A stretch of DNA of 64,000 nucleotides, from positions 159,465 through 223,464 of the IMG/VR virus record IMGVR_UViG_3300001580_000006, one strand, 5' to 3'. The number at the start of each line of letters is the position of its first letter. Positions within the stretch are counted from its first letter, which is position 1. The notes under the pieces were generated by a model. That model did not search any database. It was not told the origin of the DNA and worked only from the letters and a program-made list of their open reading frames with translations. The position numbers and the translations under genes are program-made. The DNA is from a virus. Taxonomy: Duplodnaviria; Caudoviricetes. Below are positions 1 to 35,457 of this stretch, in pieces.

Positions 1-474
1 TTTTGGTGTAAATCTATTGTAGACACTTACTAAGTGCTTGTCACCATACTTTGCTTCGGTGTCGAGTCCTCCTACCTTATCAGCAAGCCATAAGTATAAA
101 GCTGATGCTGCACGAACCGCATCGATGTCATATTGCTCCATATCAGAGTACTTTTCGTGGCTTGGCCATTCTCCAAACAGACGTACGACGTCATCATGGT
201 ATTCCCAGCCACTAGACAGCAGCTCCAGTATCTGCTCAGTAGTAGCCTCGCCCTTAGATAAGTCAGATAACACTATTTCAAGAATGGTGCCATTGGTTGG
301 TATTCTGGAGACATCGTCGTAGTAGTCTGGAGCCGCTATGTATGGCCCATCAAAATCTACTAGTTGCCTAAATAGAATCTTTGATAGTTCTTCTTTGGTA
401 GTTGGAATAGAATCTAGTCCTACCAAAAACCCTGAAGAGGACGAATTTGCTACATGTCTAAGTCTATGCTTCAT
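1..474 (-). CDS. Hypothetical protein with N-terminal K-x-R-x-x-x-V-A-N-S-S-S-S-x-F motif (runs off the window edge)
   Basis: Not in the ORF track. Manual translation from ATG at 474 gives MKHRLRHVANSSSSGFLVGLDSIPTTKEEL..., open to base 1. The N-terminal motif matches that of 1228..1782. Confidence 0.8.
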   Translation of the reverse strand, partial: MKHRLRHVANSSSSGFLVGLDSIPTTKEELSKILFRQLVDFDGPYIAAPDYYDDVSRIPTNGTILEIVLSDLSKGEATTEQILELLSSGWEYHDDVVRLFGEWPSHEKYSDMEQYDIDAVRAASALYLWLADKVGGLDTEAKYGDKHLVSVYNRFTPK

Positions 475-988: not shown

Positions 989-1210
989 CTACCGACCGCC
1001 GGACACGTCGTCGATCACGGTAACGATGTCGCCAGCCTTGAGGACAGTGCCCTCTTTGGCGGTTTCGCCGTTAACCCGCACAGACGAATTGTACTCCAAC
1101 TCCTGCTTCTGCAGAAATTCGGTCAGAGTAGTACCCGCCTTCACGACGCAGCGCTTCAGACCCTCGGTCAGCCGACCCAGCTGAACGGGAATAGATGTCA
1201 CGTTGCTCAT
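989..1210 (-). CDS. Ubiquitin-like (beta-grasp, ThiS/MoaD-type) protein with C-terminal GG-R
   Basis: VRVNG...LKAGDIVTV beta-grasp signature; ends VSGGR (diglycine masked by one residue); operonic with E1 and JAB. Confidence 0.88.
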   Translation of the reverse strand: MSNVTSIPVQLGRLTEGLKRCVVKAGTTLTEFLQKQELEYNSSVRVNGETAKEGTVLKAGDIVTVIDDVSGGR

Positions 1211-1227
1211 TTTGCTTCCTCTTTGGT

Positions 1228-1782
1228 TTATGGTTTATTGTTAATAGCGGCACCTCGCCGCTTTGGGGGAACATATCCTGCTGGAACTACAGCGATCTCC
1301 ACGCTTTGAACGTCGCCACCTATAGCTATTTGCGCAGAAGTACCATCTGGCATGTAGGCAAGGAATATTGATCCTGGGTTGTCGAAGATTCCTTCACCTG
1401 CTTCTCCTTCCCAGTCCGGTACTTCACCACTTCTAAACAAATAACCGAAACCGCCAAATGTCAGTCCTTTTTTAGCTAGCTCTAGAAATTTGTTGGTTAA
1501 ATCACTGGAGCGAACAGTTGGCATAAAATCGCAACCACCAGCTCTAGTAAGCGGTACTATGGTTGTGCAAACACCAACCTTGTTAGCCCCGAGCATATAC
1601 AGTTCACTAACGTTACCGCACTCATTTCTGAGGTGTATCATCTTGTTATGTAGACGATTACTGATATAAATCGTCTTTCCAGAACGTGAGAAATCGCTCA
1701 GTGTTCTACCTCCTCCACCATCGTCATCATCTATAAAATCTGACGAAGACGAGTTTGCTACGAATCCTAATCTTATCTTCAT
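1228..1782 (-). CDS. GCxxMP paralogue 1 (JAB/MPN-like fold) with N-terminal GFVANSSSS motif
   Basis: RLH...YMLGAN...GGCDFMP...SDLTNKFLELAKKG aligns with five neighbours; extra N-terminal MKIRLGFVANSSSSDF plus an acidic/Gly linker. Confidence 0.75.
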   Translation of the reverse strand: MKIRLGFVANSSSSDFIDDDDGGGGRTLSDFSRSGKTIYISNRLHNKMIHLRNECGNVSELYMLGANKVGVCTTIVPLTRAGGCDFMPTVRSSDLTNKFLELAKKGLTFGGFGYLFRSGEVPDWEGEAGEGIFDNPGSIFLAYMPDGTSAQIAIGGDVQSVEIAVVPAGYVPPKRRGAAINNKP

Positions 1783-2186
1783 ATAACAACTGTTAATCCT
1801 GCTACGATACGGTTATTATTTCGGTTTACTACTCTAACTACAGACCTACCTTTATTGTAAAGGATGAATGGCATTCGTGTGTCATATAACGCACTACCGT
1901 GGTCCGGACTCCAAGCTGTTCTTACTTGTAGGTTACTTTGTACCAAAGCAAATGCTACCGGTTTTGACTTTTTCTTAGCCAGCTCAACATAGGCTTTTGT
2001 AACAGAAGATGAGTGGGCCCCAGGCATAAATTCACACCCTACATCTCGTGCTATAGGCATAAAATTATCTATTATGCCAAGCCTATTAGCTCCTAGTAAG
2101 TATAATACTGCGTATTTATCTGAGTTATCTTCTGACTCCTGCTTAAATACTTTGTGCAGGCCTCTCGATATCTTTAGCTTATCCAT
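1779..2186 (-). CDS. GCxxMP paralogue 2
   Basis: GLH...YLLGAN...VGCEFMP...TKAYVELAKK..P.AFALVQ. Confidence 0.8.
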   Translation of the reverse strand: MDKLKISRGLHKVFKQESEDNSDKYAVLYLLGANRLGIIDNFMPIARDVGCEFMPGAHSSSVTKAYVELAKKKSKPVAFALVQSNLQVRTAWSPDHGSALYDTRMPFILYNKGRSVVRVVNRNNNRIVAGLTVVI

Positions 2187-2589
2187 TAACTACTCGCAAT
2201 CTTATACTATTAATGCTACTGTTGCTACTTATTCTTGCTGCATGCCTGCCTCTGTTGTAATATATAAACGGTATTTTAGACTTATACAGGGCTGTGCCTT
2301 GCATCACTTGGTACCCTGGCTTTTTCTTACTTATTGTTCCTTGAATAACTGCTAAAGCGCACGGCGCTAGACTTATATTGGCTAGACGCATATATGCGGT
2401 GGTCATTCCTTGAATACTTGCTTCTGGCATCCAGGCACATCCACGGGTTGTAATAGGTACGCTAGTGCTTCTAATTATTACCCCATCGGTATTCTTTCCT
2501 AACAAGTATATTACAGTTTCAGGCGAGTTTTTAGCAGAGGTAGACTTCAGTCTCTCATGCAACTTCTTGGTAATAATTAGCTTATTCAT
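2179..2589 (-). CDS. GCxxMP paralogue 3
   Basis: KLH...YLLGKN...RGCAWMP...TTAYMRL...PCALAVIQ. Confidence 0.8.
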   Translation of the reverse strand: MNKLIITKKLHERLKSTSAKNSPETVIYLLGKNTDGVIIRSTSVPITTRGCAWMPEASIQGMTTAYMRLANISLAPCALAVIQGTISKKKPGYQVMQGTALYKSKIPFIYYNRGRHAARISSNSSINSIRLRVVNG

Positions 2590-2984
2590 ACTGTTTCAAC
2601 AACGAATGATTCTGTAATACTACCATTGTACTGCCTGGCTATATGCTCTCCAGTACGATAGAACAAGAACGGTATCTTTAATCTAAACAAGTCTAAACCA
2701 TGGAAAGAATAGTTTCCTACTTCTTTAGCACCGCGATATTGAATAACTGCTAAGGCGCAGGGTTTTCTACCTTTCTTTACAAGGGTGATGTAGGCGTCTG
2801 TTATGGTTCTAACTGTTACGCTTGGCATCCATCCACATCCTATATTTCCATTACGTAAAGCCACAGAGTCAACAATCGTTCCTGCCCTGTTTTTGCCCAA
2901 GAGGAAAAGCTTTCTGCCATTCGGATGATCGGCAGAATACTTTTTAAGCTTGTTGTGCAAATTCTTCTTTATTTTTAGCTGCAT
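2586..2984 (-). CDS. GCxxMP paralogue 4
   Basis: NLH...FLLGKN...IGCGWMP...TDAYITLVKKG..PCALAVIQ. Confidence 0.8.
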   Translation of the reverse strand: MQLKIKKNLHNKLKKYSADHPNGRKLFLLGKNRAGTIVDSVALRNGNIGCGWMPSVTVRTITDAYITLVKKGRKPCALAVIQYRGAKEVGNYSFHGLDLFRLKIPFLFYRTGEHIARQYNGSITESFVVETV

Positions 2985-3384
2985 TGTCTTTCAAATATAA
3001 TCTTGTTGGTGTGTGAACAAAGCCGACGGTTTTCATAGCCTTTGCTGCACCAGCTTCGTAGTACAGTACTGGGAGCCTTAGCTTTACAAATCCTTCTCCA
3101 ATTTCTGGTCTCCACCCCGGCTTTCTCCCGCCTTCGTTATTTTGTACAACTGCTAGCGCTCTTGGCCTAAAGCCTAAGTTTGTAACTTTTAGATAGGTTT
3201 TAGTTAACAGCGTACTGGATAAGTGTGGCATAGACCAGCAACCATCATCAGTATCCATTAAGTCGCAACGTATAGATACGCTGCCGTGGTTTGAAGATAA
3301 TAAATAAGCTTTAGCGGCTCGCTCATTAGCCAAAGACTCTTTCTTCAGCAGTTTGTGAAGCTCTCTAGATAGTTTAATGCTCAT
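2944..3384 (-). CDS. GCxxMP paralogue 5
   Basis: ELH...YLLSSN...DGCWSMP...TKTYLKV...PRALAVVQ. Confidence 0.8.
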   Translation of the reverse strand: MSIKLSRELHKLLKKESLANERAAKAYLLSSNHGSVSIRCDLMDTDDGCWSMPHLSSTLLTKTYLKVTNLGFRPRALAVVQNNEGGRKPGWRPEIGEGFVKLRLPVLYYEAGAAKAMKTVGFVHTPTRLYLKDNAAKNKEEFAQQA

Positions 3385-3788
3385 TTGATTTTCGTTATTT
3401 TTACTGCTGCTGCTCGTGGCTTTCCATTTGTAAAGACTCTGCCAACGTGCCTACCAGCACGATAATATAGGATGGGAAGCCCCATCCTACCGATATAGCT
3501 CCCTTGTGTTCCAGACCAGCCGGCTTTGATTGTGTTGCGCTGCGCTTGCACTACGGCTAAACCGCTTGGAGTCATATTCTTTTTAGCCAGTGCTATATAT
3601 ATTTGCGTTAAATCGCTAGACTTTACGCCAGGCATCCAACTGCAGCCGTTCCCAGTACTCGGCAGGCTGTGAGCAGCTGTCAATATTCCTTTATCATTAT
3701 CGGTAAGAACGAATAGCATTGCCCTATCTATGGTTCTCCTAGACATTTCTTTGAGACCATTATGTAGAGCTTTATCTATTTTTATCAT
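3381..3788 (-). CDS. GCxxMP paralogue 6
   Basis: ALH...FVLTDN...NGCSWMP...SDLTQIYIALAKK..PSGLAVVQ. Confidence 0.8.
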   Translation of the reverse strand: MIKIDKALHNGLKEMSRRTIDRAMLFVLTDNDKGILTAAHSLPSTGNGCSWMPGVKSSDLTQIYIALAKKNMTPSGLAVVQAQRNTIKAGWSGTQGSYIGRMGLPILYYRAGRHVGRVFTNGKPRAAAVKITKIK

Positions 3789-4459
3789 GCCGTTAACATT
3801 AGCGACCTTTGGTCTAAGAAAGTCATGTTGAAGATAACCTCGGTCGGGGTTGGCTGATTCATAGCAACGCCTTTGTAAACTCTGCTTATCAAGCTGGACA
3901 ACATAAGGACGTTATATATGATTGCTTTGTTAGTGCATCGCTGAGGCGGCACTTTGTCGTCAGAATAAAGCCGTGACTCGTAGAACTTCGCCTTATCGTC
4001 CGGAACTTTGCCGCCAGATTTGGCAAGGGTGTAGACCATACCCAGCTCAGCGCCCATTCTAGCCTCAATATATAACTGAGCAGCCGGCTGCTTTTTGAAC
4101 TGCTCCCAGACCATCTTCCTTGAAGACATTGAATCTGTAGCTACAATAACCACCGGTTTGAGCGGCTGATCTTTATAGAAGCGAATCTGCGGAAGTATTT
4201 TGGTGTCAGTAAACTCGCCCATAATATCAGCCAGAGCGTTCACCTTAAACTTCTTAAGGTCTTGGTGCCGAAAGAATTGGTTGGGCAAATTAACATCGGA
4301 AACGCCGTCCTCGTCGAAGATCTCTATTACCTTCGCCCCCATCTTTCCAATGGCTAAAGCAGTAAAACTGCCAACCGACCCGGAGCCGATAATGGTTATG
4401 GAGGAGTCGTTGCGACCAACCTTGAAAATGTCGGCTTGTCTAGTTCTGTCTAGGCTCAT
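3785..4459 (-). CDS. ThiF/E1-family Ubl-activating adenylyltransferase
   Basis: N-terminal RQ, IIGSGSVGS nucleotide-binding loop, D.DGVSDVNLPNQ, KFKV, VATDSMSSR, candidate catalytic Cys in QRCTNKA; no Zn-binding CxxC pairs. Confidence 0.9.
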   Translation of the reverse strand: MSLDRTRQADIFKVGRNDSSITIIGSGSVGSFTALAIGKMGAKVIEIFDEDGVSDVNLPNQFFRHQDLKKFKVNALADIMGEFTDTKILPQIRFYKDQPLKPVVIVATDSMSSRKMVWEQFKKQPAAQLYIEARMGAELGMVYTLAKSGGKVPDDKAKFYESRLYSDDKVPPQRCTNKAIIYNVLMLSSLISRVYKGVAMNQPTPTEVIFNMTFLDQRSLMLTA

Positions 4460-5172
4460 AGGTTATCACCGTCCATTTCTGAGAGGTATGCCTCCAGCTC
4501 TCTTTGGTTCATGAATTCACCGTACCGTGGAACTCTCCTATACTGACCTCCGCGGAACTCCACTGGACCTTCTTCTCCATGGGGGTACCCGCGCGGGGTC
4601 CGGTAGTGTACTGCCGGCGCAAAGGCTTCATAGGTAACCTTCTGCTGCACTTCGAGTTTGCAGGCCTGCAGCATACTGTTGCTGATTAGGCTCTCCACCT
4701 CGATTTTCAGCTCGGAGACCAACTTCCCGTTCTTGTCGATTCTGCCTACCATATCGCCTTTGGCGTTGATGCAGATTGAATACAGCTTTGAGGATTTTGA
4801 TAGCTTGGCAATGGTAGCTTCATCCTCGCCAGAAAAGAACGCAGTCATTGTGCCGTGGCTATGCCACCATAGGTTCCACTCTGCTGGATTCTGCTTCTCT
4901 TTTACCAGATGCAAATACCAGGCTGTTAGATCGTCTCCGTGCAAAGTGGTGTGGACGGAGTTGACCTTCTGTTTGAAGATCTGCGCGTCCAGCACGGTTA
5001 CTTGAGTTAGGTCTTTTTTGAAGATAAGCTTGGTTCGGGCAAACCCGCTTATCTCACCCTCTGAAACCCGGGCAAAGGACAGCATCCTCTGATAAACGTG
5101 CAGAGGGAGCTGAATGTTCATTTCGCGACCGTCTACCATCGCATTCTCCACCTGCTTGATTCTGGTTTTCAT
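4456..5172 (-). CDS. JAB/MPN+ metalloprotease (Ubl-processing / deubiquitinase-like)
   Basis: EISGF plus WWHSHGTMTAFFSGED = E...HxH-x7-S-x2-D JAMM motif. Confidence 0.9.
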   Translation of the reverse strand: MKTRIKQVENAMVDGREMNIQLPLHVYQRMLSFARVSEGEISGFARTKLIFKKDLTQVTVLDAQIFKQKVNSVHTTLHGDDLTAWYLHLVKEKQNPAEWNLWWHSHGTMTAFFSGEDEATIAKLSKSSKLYSICINAKGDMVGRIDKNGKLVSELKIEVESLISNSMLQACKLEVQQKVTYEAFAPAVHYRTPRGYPHGEEGPVEFRGGQYRRVPRYGEFMNQRELEAYLSEMDGDNL

Positions 5173-6263
5173 TTACCGTACTCCAATTCGTAGATTTGAC
5201 AGTGGCGACAGTTGTTTTTATCGCAACTGCCTATATTAGCTTCTCTGAATTTAATGGTTTCTTTGTTCAGCCAGACGTCCTTCATAAAACTGTCTGCTTT
5301 AAGGACATCCACGCCGACCCAGCCCTTAACTCCCTCAGTAAATGAGCACGGAAAGCCTATTCCTTCAACATTAATGTAGTAGCTGAATAGGGTACTTTCA
5401 CAGCTCTCCGCCAGCCTCTCATATCTGTCGTATTTTTCGTGCCCCTGAACGGCATCTAGGAAGAAGGGAGCCGAGCATGAATCGAAGCCAAACGGAACGC
5501 CCTTCGATATCGCGGTATTTACCAGCCGGACATACTTTTCCTTATTAGAAACTTGGTGGAAGACGTTACGGTCTCCTTTCGGTTTAAGCCATAGGAATAC
5601 TATAGCACCGATTTTGTCTAAACGTCTGTCATTTCGCACCAAGCTACCACTCTTAGTTGTACCACCGATTATTGGACTAGCGTCGTCTAGTGCAGCCATG
5701 CATCTATCATAGGTCTCATCTGATAGAAGCATGTGGATGTTGACCTGCTCCAGACCTAATTTTGATAGCTTCTCTACTGCGTTGTAGCAAGTGTCTGTGT
5801 TATAATTGGATACCGCTACGGCTCCACACAGCTTGACCAGCATTTGCGCATTTTCGTCGGTTAGGCCAGTTCCGTTAATGGTAACGTTTGGTACTACTTT
5901 GTTTTGCCGGCAGTACTCAAAGATTTTCCACATGTCTGGGTTGGCATTTATATCGCCAATACCAAAAGCTATTTGAGTCAGGGTTTTTGGGAACTTGTCG
6001 AACATGATTTTAAAGTCGTCGAACGACATGTAGGACCCCTGGCCAGTGTTGGACTTATAGCACCAGGCACAACCCTGATTACAGATAGTTGATATCTCAA
6101 TGTCCATAATTTCGGGGCCAAAGGGACTATGAGTTGGGTCGTCTTCCTTAGTTTTACCCCAGCGTGCAAAGTATCCTGTCTTGGTGTCAAACAGGTAGTT
6201 GTACTCTGGAGAGTTAAGGATTCTTATTCGACCATCTTTGTTTTCGGTAATAAAGTAGTTCAT
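5169..6263 (-). CDS. Radical SAM protein with SPASM/twitch-type C-terminal domain
   Basis: CNQGCAWCY (CxxxCxxC), NVTING, C-terminal CES...FPCSF...CRHC. Confidence 0.9.
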   Translation of the reverse strand: MNYFITENKDGRIRILNSPEYNYLFDTKTGYFARWGKTKEDDPTHSPFGPEIMDIEISTICNQGCAWCYKSNTGQGSYMSFDDFKIMFDKFPKTLTQIAFGIGDINANPDMWKIFEYCRQNKVVPNVTINGTGLTDENAQMLVKLCGAVAVSNYNTDTCYNAVEKLSKLGLEQVNIHMLLSDETYDRCMAALDDASPIIGGTTKSGSLVRNDRRLDKIGAIVFLWLKPKGDRNVFHQVSNKEKYVRLVNTAISKGVPFGFDSCSAPFFLDAVQGHEKYDRYERLAESCESTLFSYYINVEGIGFPCSFTEGVKGWVGVDVLKADSFMKDVWLNKETIKFREANIGSCDKNNCRHCQIYELEYGK

Positions 6264-6541
6264 TATAAATCCATAGCTTTGTTAAGTGTTACCATAAGTA
6301 TAAAGAAACATGTTATAACATATGGGAAGAACCACCAATCAAACGGATCCTTTGCACAAAACACCTTTGTTGGTATAAAAAAGAATACCCAGAACTCACC
6401 AACTACTATGATAAACATAATAGTATTAGATATCTGCTTCTTATGGCTATTGGCCCAACTAGATATTGTAGATATCATCGACGAGGCGTTGCTGCCTATT
6501 GTCTTAAGTAGCAGCCACAGTGGATTTTTCCACATAATCAT
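6263..6541 (-). CDS. Small membrane protein
   Basis: Two hydrophobic segments. Confidence 0.55.
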   Translation of the reverse strand: MIMWKNPLWLLLKTIGSNASSMISTISSWANSHKKQISNTIMFIIVVGEFWVFFFIPTKVFCAKDPFDWWFFPYVITCFFILMVTLNKAMDL

Positions 6542-6813
6542 AATTCTTTCCCCTATTATAAATGTGTTTGTCTTGGAGAGGTTGCGGACTCAGACCGCTG
6601 CTGTGCATCAAACTCAAAGCATAGAGATTTGGCCTTGTGACCTTTTGCTTGTTTAATCTGAGTAGTCTAAATTGGACTACTCACAGCACCAATCCTCACT
6701 CCCGTAATTAATAGTGCGAGCATTTGGGATGGAAGCGTCCCAAAACCCAGGCAGAACGCGTCTTATTATTTGACCACCGTAAACTGCCCTAATCGTAGGT
6801 GGCCGCGATTTTC

Positions 6814-8529
6814 CTACTTTACCGAGAGTTTATACACCTTCTTACCTGAAATGGCTAGTACAGTGCATCCATTGCTATGCAGTCTAAATGTAGAATCCAC
6901 TGCCGGATCATTTATAACTCGGCCGGACTTTGGGGCTTTGTTGGTATTAGTGATTTCTATGTCGCCATTCTCGTTCATCGAGACTAGTATTCCGTTATCA
7001 AGAACAGTCGAGTTTATATCGTAGTTGCCGCCGACATCCTCCTTAACCCAACTTACTGGAGTTGAGTAGTCAAACGGAAACACAAATGTCCATAAATCAT
7101 ATCGGCCGTTTAGGAAGCCAATTATTTGAAGCACTTTCTTCTCTTGTTTCATAGAGACAATGCGATAGTCGCGTAGCTCTGGTAGCTGTCTATACAGACT
7201 TGCCGTCTGGCCGTTCTTTTTGTAAGTGATTAGGATATACGGCATTCCAAGAACGTTCTGATAGACTACTCCATTATAGAGAGTGGTGGCATGCTCAAGT
7301 ACGTCCCAGGACATACCCACTGACGCTATGTTCTTCTTTCCAACTTTGTCGAACACTAGCTCCATCAATTTGGTTTTATACTTAACTAAGACAACACCGT
7401 TAGAAGTTGTTATATCATCGGCTCTGAAGCTATGAGCTACACTCTCTAACCCATTTGAGATTGTAAGTGGGCAGTCGTTGGCATTCCTTTTGCCAACCAA
7501 AATGGTTTCATTCACATTGTTCTTAGAAACCACTACTTTGTCATTGGTGTAGCTAATCTGCGGCCCACGCACTAACCCACGATTTATATAGAGCTCTGTT
7601 ATCACATCGCCATACTCGCTTATGAATAAGGCTGGCGAGTCGAACTCTGCCAATTCTTCAATCATTAGTAATGTACCAACCACTTTCTGTATAACGATAG
7701 TTGGTATAATATAGGTGCCGGGCTTTGCCGGCGGGGCGACCCTTTTGCCTTCCTTCAGTACGGCTCGATACCACTGAGCCCAACTAGTTGGAATTCCAGA
7801 GATTGGGCGCATGGTTTTAGGAAGAGATACCCCCTTATCAAACACCGAGGCATTAGCCTTCATTCTGCCTTCTATATCATTTCTGGCAAACTTTGGGTGG
7901 GTTCCCTTATAGGGATGAATGCCAGTAAACATCTGAAATGATACTACTGCGAACGAGAACCAATCGCTGCCTTCGTTAAATCCTTTGGTATGCCAATCGC
8001 GTATGGATGGCATAATGGCTGTAGCTGGAAAATTTCTCGTTTGATAGCTATCAACATCGATGAAGTACACTCTTCTATTGGCTTCATTGAACAGATAGTT
8101 AAACTCGTTTCCATCTACTATTAGGATGTCTCTGCTGTGAACAGCACAAATGGTAGTAGCCATCTCTGTGGCCATAGTAAGAATGTTTCCGGTGTTTATG
8201 CCCATACGCCCAATGTAGTCATTGGTAAAGATTTTACATAAGGCTACTGCGCCATCTACGAAATAGTAAACATAGCCAACTAACTCGTTGTGTTTGTTGT
8301 ATATAGCACGTAGTGGGTACATCACAGCAGGTCTGGCTGCCTCTAAACTAGTCAATTCTCTAGCCTTAGCTATTGGTATAGCCCTAGCTGGCTTGTGGTA
8401 TATTTTGTAGGCAAAATCACCCTTACGATATACTCTACCTTCTCCGCCCTCACTAACGAAATCCCTGTCGGTTAGGTTAATATCCCCAACGTCATTTGTG
8501 GAGATGACATCGCGTATTGAGTAAATCAT
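6814..8529 (-). CDS. Ser/Thr protein kinase (YegI / TerY-P-triad type) with beta-rich C-terminal domain
   Basis: GGEGRVY G-loop, AYKIY, VDGNEFNYL catalytic loop, FIDVDSYQ, SDWFSFAV..FQMFTGIHPYKG. Confidence 0.85.
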   Translation of the reverse strand: MIYSIRDVISTNDVGDINLTDRDFVSEGGEGRVYRKGDFAYKIYHKPARAIPIAKARELTSLEAARPAVMYPLRAIYNKHNELVGYVYYFVDGAVALCKIFTNDYIGRMGINTGNILTMATEMATTICAVHSRDILIVDGNEFNYLFNEANRRVYFIDVDSYQTRNFPATAIMPSIRDWHTKGFNEGSDWFSFAVVSFQMFTGIHPYKGTHPKFARNDIEGRMKANASVFDKGVSLPKTMRPISGIPTSWAQWYRAVLKEGKRVAPPAKPGTYIIPTIVIQKVVGTLLMIEELAEFDSPALFISEYGDVITELYINRGLVRGPQISYTNDKVVVSKNNVNETILVGKRNANDCPLTISNGLESVAHSFRADDITTSNGVVLVKYKTKLMELVFDKVGKKNIASVGMSWDVLEHATTLYNGVVYQNVLGMPYILITYKKNGQTASLYRQLPELRDYRIVSMKQEKKVLQIIGFLNGRYDLWTFVFPFDYSTPVSWVKEDVGGNYDINSTVLDNGILVSMNENGDIEITNTNKAPKSGRVINDPAVDSTFRLHSNGCTVLAISGKKVYKLSVK

Positions 8530-8972
8530 ATTCTAGTGCTCAGTAGGTGCGTCCATGCATCTTTTATTATTTTGAGGTGGTCAAATGCTAATTCTACTGT
8601 TCCGTTCATTATATCGTCTAGCGCAAACGACTTTATATCGGCTGCATCTGACTCAGCACTAAGCTTTAGATTACTGGTAGAGGCATGCACAAACGACGTA
8701 GTTATATATCGTCCTCTGAGATCTCTATCCGCTTTTGAATACGTATGAACTTGCCGAAGCTCTACTATAGAGACGGTTATTCCAGTTTCCTCTTTTAGCT
8801 CTCTAATAGCAGCATCTTCAAGGGTTTCCCCTTCGTCCAAATGGCCACCTGGAAGCGCCCACTTACCTTTAAATGGATCATACTTGCGCTTGATAAGCAC
8901 AACTTTTGCAAGTGGCCCTATTAGTTCGAATACAACGATGTCAACAGTGTTTACTGCTATTGGTTTAGTCAT
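8526..8972 (-). CDS. Nudix hydrolase (ADP-ribose pyrophosphatase / NrtR-like)
   Basis: Nudix box GGHLDEGETLEDAAIRELKEETG; WALPGG, RDLRGRYIT, LAFDH. Confidence 0.9.
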   Translation of the reverse strand: MTKPIAVNTVDIVVFELIGPLAKVVLIKRKYDPFKGKWALPGGHLDEGETLEDAAIRELKEETGITVSIVELRQVHTYSKADRDLRGRYITTSFVHASTSNLKLSAESDAADIKSFALDDIMNGTVELAFDHLKIIKDAWTHLLSTRI

Positions 8973-8981
8973 ATTATCTTA

Positions 8982-9983
8982 CTATACTATATAGCGTTCA
9001 TAGTCTCCATTTACTGCAGACAGTTCTCTAATCATACTGGAACTGATGTGCTCAAAGTGGGGGCTACAGTTAAAGTAGGCAAATTCTACATTTACTACAT
9101 CGTGGATGGCCTTCTGTAGATTAAGCTCATGTTGTATATCGCTGGTGTTCCTAAACCCGCGTATTATGTAGTACTTGTCTTTGGTTCCTGCGATATAATT
9201 ACGAATCCATTTAGCTAATTCAGTATCTACATCGTTACGTTCGTAGGGCTCTAAGGTGGTGCTTAAGGGCCAAGACCACCTTGCAGACTCCTTGTTACCA
9301 GCTTTAGCTTTCAAGATAACGATTTTATCAAATAGTGGCTCAGCCTTATTTAGGACATCAAGGTGTCCTTTGTGGAATGGGTTAAAGCTCCCAGGATAAA
9401 ACGCAATCTTTCTGTTGGTTGACTTTACGTAAGATACGTTCCAAGTGGTGTCTATGCCGGTTTTAACGTGTATCTGTTGTAGAGCCTGGATACGTTTTTC
9501 TCTGAATGTTTTGATCGGCACCCAACTATATTCACGGAATATGTTCTCTTCCATCGCCATTTGGTCTATTTTGCTAGCTCCAAATATTTGTAGATCTAGC
9601 CTAATTAAGGTGCGTGACAACTTATCCAATTTGCGTTTATCAAGAAAGCTATAGCTGGTATTTATAATAGCACTACAGACATCTTTTACTATTTTGCTGT
9701 TCGGATGCTTGGCAAAGTTATGTAGGGCACTAATGGCTCTAGCCTCGTTGTTGGGTGATTTTGGGTCATAGCCAAAGTCGTGGAATACAATAGCTAATAG
9801 CAGAGAATCTGATGGTCTTCCGCCCACAAAGGCGTTATTAACCATTTCTGCGATGTGGTGTATATTGTGATAATGTAACCACGATGGCGAAGTGGCAGCC
9901 AAATAATCATCATAGGTCATGGTGGTATATTTTCTTAATATACCGGCAATCCGAATTTCGGCTATTATACTTGTTTCTCCCAC
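8982..9983 (-). CDS. HD-domain + CoaD/NadD-like nucleotidyltransferase fusion
   Basis: N-terminal YHNIHHI...FHD...DL; C-terminal YPGSFNPFHKGH (HxGH), RGFRN, ISSSMIREL. Confidence 0.85.
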   Translation of the reverse strand: MGETSIIAEIRIAGILRKYTTMTYDDYLAATSPSWLHYHNIHHIAEMVNNAFVGGRPSDSLLLAIVFHDFGYDPKSPNNEARAISALHNFAKHPNSKIVKDVCSAIINTSYSFLDKRKLDKLSRTLIRLDLQIFGASKIDQMAMEENIFREYSWVPIKTFREKRIQALQQIHVKTGIDTTWNVSYVKSTNRKIAFYPGSFNPFHKGHLDVLNKAEPLFDKIVILKAKAGNKESARWSWPLSTTLEPYERNDVDTELAKWIRNYIAGTKDKYYIIRGFRNTSDIQHELNLQKAIHDVVNVEFAYFNCSPHFEHISSSMIRELSAVNGDYERYIV

Positions 9984-10336
9984 AGGCTATACCTCCAATA
10001 GGGTGTTGACATAAATGGCTCTACTTTTGCAGATGGAAGTGCTGCCTTCATCTTTCTTGCACCCTCCGGGTTAAACGAATGTATTACTATCTCTGGAGGC
10101 TGTTTGTCTGAATTGTTCTCCAGCCATTTTGCTACTTCATATCCGGTTCCAGGACCGGAAGCTACCATTTCCGATCCGCCTAAGTCATGATCTAGGAAGA
10201 CTATATCCCAACTATTTTTACCAAGTTCATCTATAGCTTCTTTGGCGGTTTCGACTATGACAGCTGTATGGTGTACAAACACACTGCGCATTGTTTGCCA
10301 CCGAAAGTGACTGTCTTCAAGTATCAGGATTTTCAT
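9965..10336 (-). CDS. Cyclic-phosphate-processing receiver-like domain protein
   Basis: ILILED...FLDHDLG...TGYEVAKWL...IHSFNPEGA..M. Confidence 0.8.
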   Translation of the reverse strand: MKILILEDSHFRWQTMRSVFVHHTAVIVETAKEAIDELGKNSWDIVFLDHDLGGSEMVASGPGTGYEVAKWLENNSDKQPPEIVIHSFNPEGARKMKAALPSAKVEPFMSTPYWRYSLWEKQV

Positions 10337-34716: not shown

Positions 34717-35457
34717 CTACCTCTTTATGCTTGGTATTGGTAGCCTTTTGTGGTAGGTCCGTTCGTACGCTTTGACCACAAAGGCCATTGCTTCCGGAGT
34801 GGTTGATGGAAGGCCATACGGCATCTCCTCCGCCCTGTCTTGATATAGCAGGCGGAGTACGGCTCCGTCGAGATCGTCGTATGAGAAGCCAAGTTCGCGC
34901 TCGTCGGTTTGTCCCTTCCAAAGATCTGCGCTGGGCGCTTTCTCGATGATTCTTTTGGGAATGCCCAGTTCCCGAGCGAGCCCTCTTACCTCGTATTTGG
35001 CTAAGTGGGCGATTGGTTCTACGTCCACCCCACCGTCGCCGTATTTGGTAAAGTAGCCCAGCGTCATTTCGGTAAGGTTGCTGGTGCCAGCGACCAGGAG
35101 GCCCAGTTGGTTTGCGTAGGCGTACAAGGCCACCATCCTTAAGCGCGACCTTATGTTGCCGGCGGCGAGCTTGTCGTAGTCGATGCCAGTGGCTGCCACG
35201 ATCATGTCGTGCGTCCGTCCAAGATCGGCTAGTAGTAGCGAGACCCCAAGGTGCTCTGCTACCAGTTGGGCGTCCTCAAAGGCAGAGTCCGAGCTTTGGC
35301 ATGGCAAGGCAACAAGCACTAGATGGGCATCTATTCTGCTGCATAGGGCAGCGACAACCGCCGAGTCCAGGCCACCTGATACTCCCACTACATAGCCTTT
35401 CGCTGTTTGCGATAGCCTTCCTTTTAGGAAGCCTGTTATTAGGTCTATTTGGCTCAT
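34717..35457 (-). CDS. nadE: NH3-dependent NAD+ synthetase
   Basis: GVSGGLDSAV, NIRSRLRM, GTSN.TE..LGYFTKYGDG, KAPSADLW.GQTDE.ELG. Confidence 0.95.
   Translation of the reverse strand: MSQIDLITGFLKGRLSQTAKGYVVGVSGGLDSAVVAALCSRIDAHLVLVALPCQSSDSAFEDAQLVAEHLGVSLLLADLGRTHDMIVAATGIDYDKLAAGNIRSRLRMVALYAYANQLGLLVAGTSNLTEMTLGYFTKYGDGGVDVEPIAHLAKYEVRGLARELGIPKRIIEKAPSADLWKGQTDERELGFSYDDLDGAVLRLLYQDRAEEMPYGLPSTTPEAMAFVVKAYERTYHKRLPIPSIKR

Follow-up and report, generated by a model that had tools for sequence, protein, structure and literature searches.

A phage ubiquitin-like operon with tandem cysteine-bearing, zinc-less MPN-fold paralogues between its E1 and Ubl genes

The operon described here is carried by an IMG/VR virus record (IMGVR_UViG_3300001580_000006, Caudoviricetes; 223,464 bp, 94% complete), of which the final 64 kb were analysed and are referred to as the window. 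On the minus strand of positions 989-6263 of this window, ten tightly packed genes form a translationally coupled operon, which runs from a radical S-adenosylmethionine enzyme (rSAM), a JAB metallopeptidase and a ThiF-type activating enzyme (E1), through six small paralogues that each bear a conserved cysteine (X1 to X6), to the precursor of a ubiquitin-like protein (Ubl) (Table 1). This arrangement had been predicted from the DNA letters, and both the open reading frames (ORFs) and the Pfam matches confirm it. The genes are joined by six ATGA overlaps and one ATGGATAA junction, while the X2-X3 overlap measures 41 nt and a gap of 17 nt separates X6 from the Ubl gene. A perfect stem-loop, which begins 9 nt past the Ubl stop codon, has no U-run and was not called by a terminator scan, is likely an operon-end RNA element. 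The operon DNA was assembled, at 100% identity, from at least four independent samples, and is therefore not an assembly artefact; a megablast search with the operon against 50,697 phage records returned no match.

Table 1. Genes and elements of the operon, with the second Ubl-type operon of the same genome (positions refer to the window unless preceded by G000).
Feature	Position	Strand	Basis or detail
Radical SAM enzyme, 364 aa	5169-6263	minus	Pfam Radical_SAM 5.8e-10, phrog_7293 3.7e-87
JAB/MPN+ metallopeptidase, 238 aa	4456-5172	minus	Prok-JAB 2.6e-04; codon-by-codon motif check
Compact ThiF-type E1, 224 aa	3785-4459	minus	Pfam ThiF 8.1e-12
X1, Cys-bearing zinc-less MPN paralogue, 135 aa	3381-3788	minus	Cys49, codon 3642-3644, sole Cys
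X2 paralogue, 146 aa	2944-3384	minus	Cys49, codon 3238-3240; alignment; own-genome family profile E <=2e-53
X3 paralogue, 132 aa	2586-2984	minus	Cys50, codon 2835-2837
X4 paralogue, 136 aa	2179-2589	minus	Cys51, codon 2437-2439
X5 paralogue, 135 aa	1779-2186	minus	Cys51, codon 2034-2036, sole Cys
X6 paralogue, 184 aa, adjoins Ubl	1228-1782	minus	Cys84, codon 1531-1533
ThiS/MoaD-like Ubl precursor, 73 aa, ends S-G71-G72-R73	989-1210	minus	ThiS 8.6e-07
Perfect 13-bp stem-loop, 5-nt loop	950-980	minus	Arms CCCCTGGTAAGGC / GCCTTACCAGGGG; read from sequence
Second Ubl-type operon: 605-aa protein; 248-aa JAB-like protein; 227-aa ThiF E1; 73-aa protein ending KSN	G000 135368-138866		JAB-like HLHP...SPSGPD (HxH...S..D); E1 ThiF 1e-15

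The six paralogues share 21-38% pairwise identity, with L8, H9, G48, C49, M52 and P53 invariant in a six-sequence alignment. The original prediction held the N-terminal LH and the GCxxMP motif to be invariant, which is true among the six copies; across all relatives, invariance is limited to Gly-Cys, and the His position may be occupied by H, Y, F or A. This variation makes it unlikely that the Cys is paired with the N-terminal His as a thioester acceptor, as had also been proposed, and a Cys-His dyad was rejected for the same reason. The Cys itself is kept in all of the 150 representatives aligned and the preceding Gly in 145 of them; other conserved positions are the Met at +3 (109/149), the Pro at +4 (125/150) and the Gly after strand 1 (130/150). 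Since X1 and X5 contain no other Cys, the family Cys is a lone thiol, which belongs to neither a disulfide nor a metal site. Among X1-X6, the loop that holds the Gly-Cys pair (GC loop) shows the greatest pairwise identity (0.42), and the C-terminal strands the least (0.21).

Searched with the family profile, 1.84 billion cluster representatives contained at least 227 relatives at E<=1e-3, 66 of them at E<=1e-10; the clusters were made at 50% identity. Extra N-terminal domains, Lys-rich C-terminal tails and double-MPN fusions occur among these relatives. A word-indexed homologue search with the family alignment returned three proteins. The paralogues gave no match in Pfam, NCBIfam, PADLOC or PDB sequences, and a single one in PHROGs (E 0.067); JAB models matched none of 74 family members at E<=0.1, and a tblastn search with X1 against phage records found nothing. 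A degenerate DNA pattern for GCEFMPG hit 11 IMG/VR loci, all of which were chance matches, none with a family match. Pfam, NCBIfam and PHROG annotation do not include this family, and its definition would annotate many phage genes.

The fold of the paralogues can be read from a model of X1, built by AlphaFold2 with the family alignment, with a predicted local distance difference test (pLDDT) of 94.2 and a predicted template modelling score (pTM) of 0.87. Structural comparison with VIA superposed 126 of its 129 residues on PfJAMM1, the JAMM1 of Pyrococcus (5ld9_A; Z 17.1, root-mean-square deviation 2.1 A), and the all-against-all comparison then gave 35 more MPN chains at Z>=7 (36 in all). Foldseek also placed PfJAMM1 first (E 4.6e-07, TM 0.80), followed by BRCC36, Rpn11, CSN5 and the bacterial Bil deubiquitinase, and the nearest models of the ESM Atlas were Prok-JAB clusters (TM 0.77). 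The Atlas's own model of X1 was poor (pLDDT 0.32), its feature matches being unnamed viral clusters, and a PDB sequence profile search with the family gave no meaningful match. The modelled fold is therefore that of JAB/MPN proteins, as had been guessed from the order of secondary structure elements, and not the UBC fold of conjugating enzymes (E2s).

Alignment of the paralogues to the JAB of their own operon by hhalign is weak (E 0.043 with six sequences, 0.0016 with 74) and falls in the register that had been proposed, with the paralogue helix SDLTQIYIALAKKNMTP on DDLTAWYLHLVKEKQNP of the JAB, and LAVVQ on the strand of the WWHSH zinc motif. AQR-type residues lie on HSH, W..SGTQG lies on F.SGEDE, and the zinc site is therefore gone from the paralogues, which also lack the upstream Glu; at helix 3, an aromatic residue and a Gly (115/134; W90, G95/96) stand in place of the SxxD zinc motif. 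The JAMM/MPN+ signature (E...HxHx7Sx2D), absent from the paralogues, is present in the neighbouring 238-aa JAB. The Prok-JAB match of that protein falls under the cut-off of the model, and a codon-by-codon reading found all of its catalytic residues in place (E40, H104-x-H106, S114 and D117), including the HxH-x7-S-x2-D that the first reading of the sequence had called intact. It is 33-39% identical to the JABs of two related cassettes described below, and is presumed to be the Ubl-processing and deconjugating enzyme.

Rpn8-Rpn11 and CSN6-CSN5 are pairs of an MPN-minus and an MPN+ protein. The paralogues could likewise be non-catalytic, either pairing with the MPN+ JAB, or serving as Ubl receptors or adaptors for an E2-independent conjugation or deconjugation of the SAMP/TtuB type, which they would direct to different substrates. 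MPN+/MPN-minus pairing is usual among the structural matches (4o8x, 5cw3, 4d10), the operon combines a single JAB with several MPN-minus genes, the family includes double-MPN fusions, and Ubl conjugation without an E2 is established for SAMP/UbaA. Nevertheless, a purely structural partner would not be expected to retain a lone Cys in 150 of 150 representatives at <=50% identity, and the conserved residues appear to line the former catalytic groove, not the dimer face. This explanation is rather unlikely.

The position of the Cys in the fold bears directly on its possible role. In the X1 model, the GC loop (residues 43-56) connects the strand 36-42 to the helix 57-69, forms two beta-bridges at residues 48 and 53, and corresponds in topology to Ins-1. 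This insertion is, in Rpn11, AMSH and archaeal Rpn11, a hairpin that pairs with the C-terminal strand of ubiquitin, and the JAMM groove that places the last Gly at the active site is walled by H3 on one side, and by Ins-1 and H2 on the other (PMC6043591). By homology, the conserved family residues probably line both walls of the ancestral groove for the Ubl tail.

A peptidase fold whose substrate groove holds an invariant Cys of the nucleophile type could also mean that the JAB fold has turned into a cysteine peptidase, the paralogues being thiol-dependent proteases specific for Ubl or ubiquitin-like proteins, possibly directed against the conjugates of Ubl-based host defence; phages are confronted with conjugation by Bil, CBASS and Bub (PMC10557695, PMC11601596). 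This is very improbable, as no conserved His, Asp or Asn partner was found and His9 varies, while an intact metallo-JAB is already in the operon and the linkage with the E1 and Ubl of the cassette itself is strict, which favours a role inside the pathway.

That linkage is seen in other phage contigs. In every contig with a visible upstream gene, the family gene directly follows a ThiF gene, and where the DNA is readable, the preceding E1 is 47-59% identical to the E1 of this phage (L007, L008, L030/31, L032/33 and L036). One contig carries an E1 (59% identity) and then a family member (L008), another an E1 fragment, a member and a Ubl ending SGGR (L007), and a third an E1, a member and a Ubl ending SGGRF (L030/L031). 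More complete versions contain a JAB (33%), an E1 (51%), a member with an N-terminal extra domain and a Ubl ending TGGR (L032/L033), or a JAB (39%), an E1 (52%), two members and a Ubl (52% identity) (L036, the 58-kb Logan contig DRR404984). Two further contigs, known from gene tables only, show a 218-aa gene, ThiF and a member (ENA), and ThiF, a 191-aa gene, a 193-aa gene, a 381-aa member and a 72-aa gene (JGI phage contig), with one ThiF each in about 15 kb. Wherever the DNA can be read, E1 has JAB before it, and the family gene or genes are followed by a Ubl with a GGR end. From these contexts, the core cassette therefore consists of JAB, E1, one or more MPN-Cys genes and a Ubl ending in Gly-Gly-Arg. 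The family is bound in synteny to E1 and Ubl wherever its context is visible. The E1 alone, used as a query for related IMG/VR loci, found none.

The number of family genes differs between cassettes. Tandem arrays elsewhere hold two, probably three, and at least 11 genes, the longest (L037) comprising at least 11 consecutive family genes with 15 domains, in a contig that ends inside the array. In a tree of the family, X1-X5 form an exclusive clade (support 0.96) and X6 groups with single-copy members of other phages, to two of which (L007 and L008) it is 36% identical by blast. According to this topology, X1-X5 are a lineage-specific expansion, and the L037 array arose independently. The pairing of an ancestral X6 with a five-fold expansion suggests several targets. 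X6 is also the sole acidic copy (isoelectric point, pI, of 6.1, compared with 9.7-10.6 in the other five), and begins with a 35-aa N-terminal extension starting with MKIRLGFVANSSSSDF.

Basic proteins encoded between an E1 and a Ubl might themselves be what is tagged, the E1 loading Ubl on their Cys or on Lys-rich tails, so that the tagged proteins, e.g., regulated nucleic-acid binders or virion proteins, would be the functional product of the pathway. The high pI of five of the six copies, the Lys-rich C-terminal tails of many relatives and the gene order are consistent with such acceptors. A passive substrate would have no need for the Ubl-tail-binding fold and groove that the family has retained, and X1-X5 have no Lys-rich tails; the acceptor explanation is accordingly given a small chance.

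The two remaining core components can be assigned to known classes. The E1 scores 45.2 bits with Pfam ThiF (cut-off 28.1 bits), which identifies it as an adenylyltransferase, and in the PDB its profile finds the adenylation domains of PaaA, Uba1, MccB and ThiF. It has neither a rhodanese nor a CYS domain. Its lone Cys, C175 (codon 3935-3937), is invariant in an alignment of five cassette E1s and aligned with C178 of the second E1 of the same genome (27% identity). C175 may be equivalent to ThiF Cys184, the part of the E1 that aligns to solved E1s being only its N-terminal adenylation half. The Ubl scores 29.9 bits with Pfam ThiS (cut-off 22.5 bits), ends in SGG-R, is ThiS/MoaD-like by sequence, and is 40-52% identical to the Ubls of four other cassettes, which end in SGGR, SGGRF or TGGR. 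The predicted lack of a recognisable E2 holds for the operon and for the genome: six Pfam E2 models, searched against the whole 223 kb, gave nothing at E<=1.

ThiS/MoaD-like and ThiF-like proteins raise the possibility of a sulfur relay, in which a persulfide on the family Cys would turn the Ubl-adenylate into a Ubl-thiocarboxylate, whose sulfur would go to a cofactor, a nucleotide or tRNA, perhaps with the rSAM. Besides the matches of the Ubl to ThiS/MoaD and of the E1 to ThiF models, this is supported by the known trimming of sulfur-carrier precursors by JAB proteins (PMC1779556), and by the translational coupling of the rSAM gene in this phage. However, models of rhodanese, cysteine desulfurase (Aminotran_5) and TtuA/Ncs6-type PP-loop enzymes found nothing in the phage genome, where the sole PP-loop match is the NAD synthase NadE. 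The phage's own genes thus do not provide what a sulfur-carrier E1 works with, although host enzymes may supply the sulfur steps. In addition, a relay does not need 6-11 diverged carriers, and Iyer et al. 2006 (PMC1779556) count E1s that lack rhodanese among those of conjugation.

The rSAM itself, which carries CxxxCxxC at C61/C65/C68 and a Cys-rich C-terminus, scores 40 bits with Pfam Radical_SAM (cut-off 29.5), together with a weak SPASM match (16.2 bits, 0.013) under the cut-off of 21.5. Phage records that contain its family (phrog_7293) number 172, most of them T4-like, and those checked have no cassette close to it; in RB16, for example, it is surrounded by unrelated small genes. None of the other cassette contigs carries an rSAM. 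As it is absent from other cassettes and stands alone in RB16/RB43-like phages, the rSAM was rejected as a core part; it is a local addition, the first gene of the operon here and outside the conserved cassette. The suggestion that came with the original prediction, of a sulfur relay serving the rSAM, is weakened by this independence, and a sulfur relay of any kind is quite improbable.

The fold, the lost zinc ligands, the lone Cys, the gene order, the lack of a Pfam E2 and the diversification of the copies lead to the reading to which we incline, at somewhat less than an even chance: the Cys-bearing pseudo-JABs would accept or transfer Ubl in a phage Ubl-tagging cassette. Its chemistry is predicted from sequence and from related systems. 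JAB would first remove the residue after the Gly-Gly of the Ubl precursor, as the Bil, CysO and QbsE precedents suggest. E1 would then adenylate the C-terminal Gly of Ubl, and may take Ubl onto Cys175. In an MPN-Cys protein, the former JAMM groove would hold the Ubl tail and the loop Cys would receive Ubl as a thioester, and the protein would finally pass it to a target, which may be chosen by the variable C-terminal sheet, the N-terminal add-on domains and the basic tails of the family members. A more far-reaching proposal, possible and distinctly tentative, is that the MPN-Cys proteins are a new phage-borne class of Ubl-conjugating enzymes derived from a deubiquitinase fold, acting as combined E2s and ligases (E3s), and that through their tandem diversification a single E1-Ubl pair can mark numerous targets of host or phage.

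Several points weigh against Ubl acceptance or transfer by the MPN-Cys proteins. Archaeal SAMP and Thermus TtuB are conjugated without an E2, and an E2 substitute is therefore not strictly needed. Neither a general base nor an HPN-like motif lies beside the family Cys, whose closeness to the Ubl Gly in three dimensions is argued from topology and homology, not from coordinates. By sequence, the Ubl belongs to the ThiS/MoaD-like class, which is used for sulfur transfer. Finally, the same genome holds a second E1-JAB-Ubl operon, 24 kb upstream of the window, and L036 has two E1 systems side by side, the second being a JAB-containing 453-aa protein and an E1 located 3 kb upstream of the cassette, with a RuvB-like AAA gene between; an E2 may thus be borrowed from another system of the same genome. 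The two-system layout of L036 mirrors that of this phage genome.

Phages encode the cassette, diverged ones have conserved it, and it tends to expand in tandem, a pattern that suggests a role in phage-host conflict or in the remodelling of the infected cell. To our knowledge, bacterial Ubl conjugation has so far been studied almost solely as a host defence.

Other features of the genome were recorded beside these results. About 13 ORFs of the phage start with a near-identical MK(I/H)R..FV(S/A)NSSSS(S)F motif, followed by unrelated sequence (window 1-474; G000 120022-121769, 132258-132886 and 157278-159938; also X6, 1228-1782). Five of them lie directly downstream of the Ubl operon, and the N-terminal extension of X6 carries the same motif. 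Their library matches are only weak PHROG ones (phrog_7397; one goF), and a literature text search did not find the exact motif string. In a distant 140-kb phage (L011, 15719-18860), five motif ORFs lie 6-9 kb downstream of an rSAM homologue; a constant association of rSAM with MKIR..FVSNSSSSSF proteins was rejected, as none is near the RB16 rSAM.

Just upstream of the operon, a 571-aa ORF (6814-8529) has a kinase-like N-terminal sequence pattern, and no Pfam match at E<=0.01. A NUDIX hydrolase (6e-24), an HD-like protein fused to a cytidylyltransferase/NMNAT-like domain (4.6e-10) and NadE (2.6e-63), located at 8526-9983 and 34717-35457 of the window, suggest a phage NAD+ reconstitution set, and a cREC_REC receiver-domain protein is encoded at 9965-10336. 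In L037, directly past the family array, two RtcB fragments of 164 and 187 aa (6122-7515), ~330 bp apart, may represent an RNA ligase gene interrupted by an intein, an intron or a frameshift.

Compared with known systems, the Ubl, E1 and JAB of the cassette make up a parts list already described for Bil, CBASS and Bub, as well as for SAMP and TtuB, and its third component is new. Neither literature text searches nor Iyer et al. 2006 (PMC1779556) yielded an MPN family that bears a Cys, lacks zinc and is linked to E1 and Ubl. The BilABCD system (Chambers et al. 2023, PMC10557695) shares with the cassette a JAB-trimmed Ubl precursor, an E1, a third component bearing a Cys, a compact operon and a setting of phage-host conflict. 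Nevertheless, Bil is host-encoded, and combines a UBC-fold E2 with a two-domain E1 that has a mobile CYS domain, whereas the phage-encoded cassette has a 224-aa E1 with one Cys, and a third component that is MPN-fold and multiplied. Bub (6E) (Ye et al. 2024, PMC11601596) offers a precedent for replaced thioester chemistry and components, with the same JAB-E1 partnership, but its UBC-like E2 forms oxyesters without Cys, whereas the new component here is defined by its Cys.

The ThiF and metalloprotease module of crAss-like phages and the second operon of the same genome rely on an E1 of the same compact phage type (24-27% identity), with JAB beside it. Neither has a third component related to the MPN-Cys family, of which no match was found in those loci. 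The crAss-like post-E1 protein was rejected as a family member (hhalign E 0.54), and the 605-aa protein of the second operon has no Pfam match and no homologues found, its single-sequence AlphaFold2 model being too poor for use (pLDDT 34). The 73-aa protein of the second operon ends in KSN, in contrast to the GG-R of the cassette Ubl.

The MPN-minus pseudoenzymes (Rpn8, CSN6, Abraxas/KIAA0157, eIF3f/h and the Prp8 MPN) share with the paralogues an MPN fold that has lost its zinc ligands and stands beside an active MPN+ enzyme. Unlike them, the phage proteins are single-domain, very basic and tandemly amplified, and we know of no MPN-minus pseudoenzyme whose Ins-1 has a conserved nucleophilic Cys, or whose gene lies in an operon with E1 and Ubl.

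The SAMP/UbaA/JAMM1 and Thermus TtuB/TtuC systems are similar in their ThiS/MoaD-like Ubl ending in Gly-Gly, their single compact E1, their JAMM peptidase and their lack of a UBC-fold E2. PfJAMM1, the best structural match of X1, belongs to the SAMP system, and PDB 5lda is its complex with SAMP2. No Cys-bearing pseudo-JAMM partner is known from these systems, which also act in sulfur transfer together with rhodanese and TtuA-type enzymes.

As far as we know, the carrier in every characterised Ubl conjugation cascade that has one is a UBC-fold E2 or a relative of it. It would take proof of thioester transfer on an MPN fold to make the phage cassette categorically new. With such proof, the groove of a hydrolase that removes ubiquitin would have been reused for the opposite reaction, and a carrier or ligase of the JAB/MPN fold would constitute a third solution, beside the E2-dependent pathways and the E2-less ones of SAMP and TtuB.

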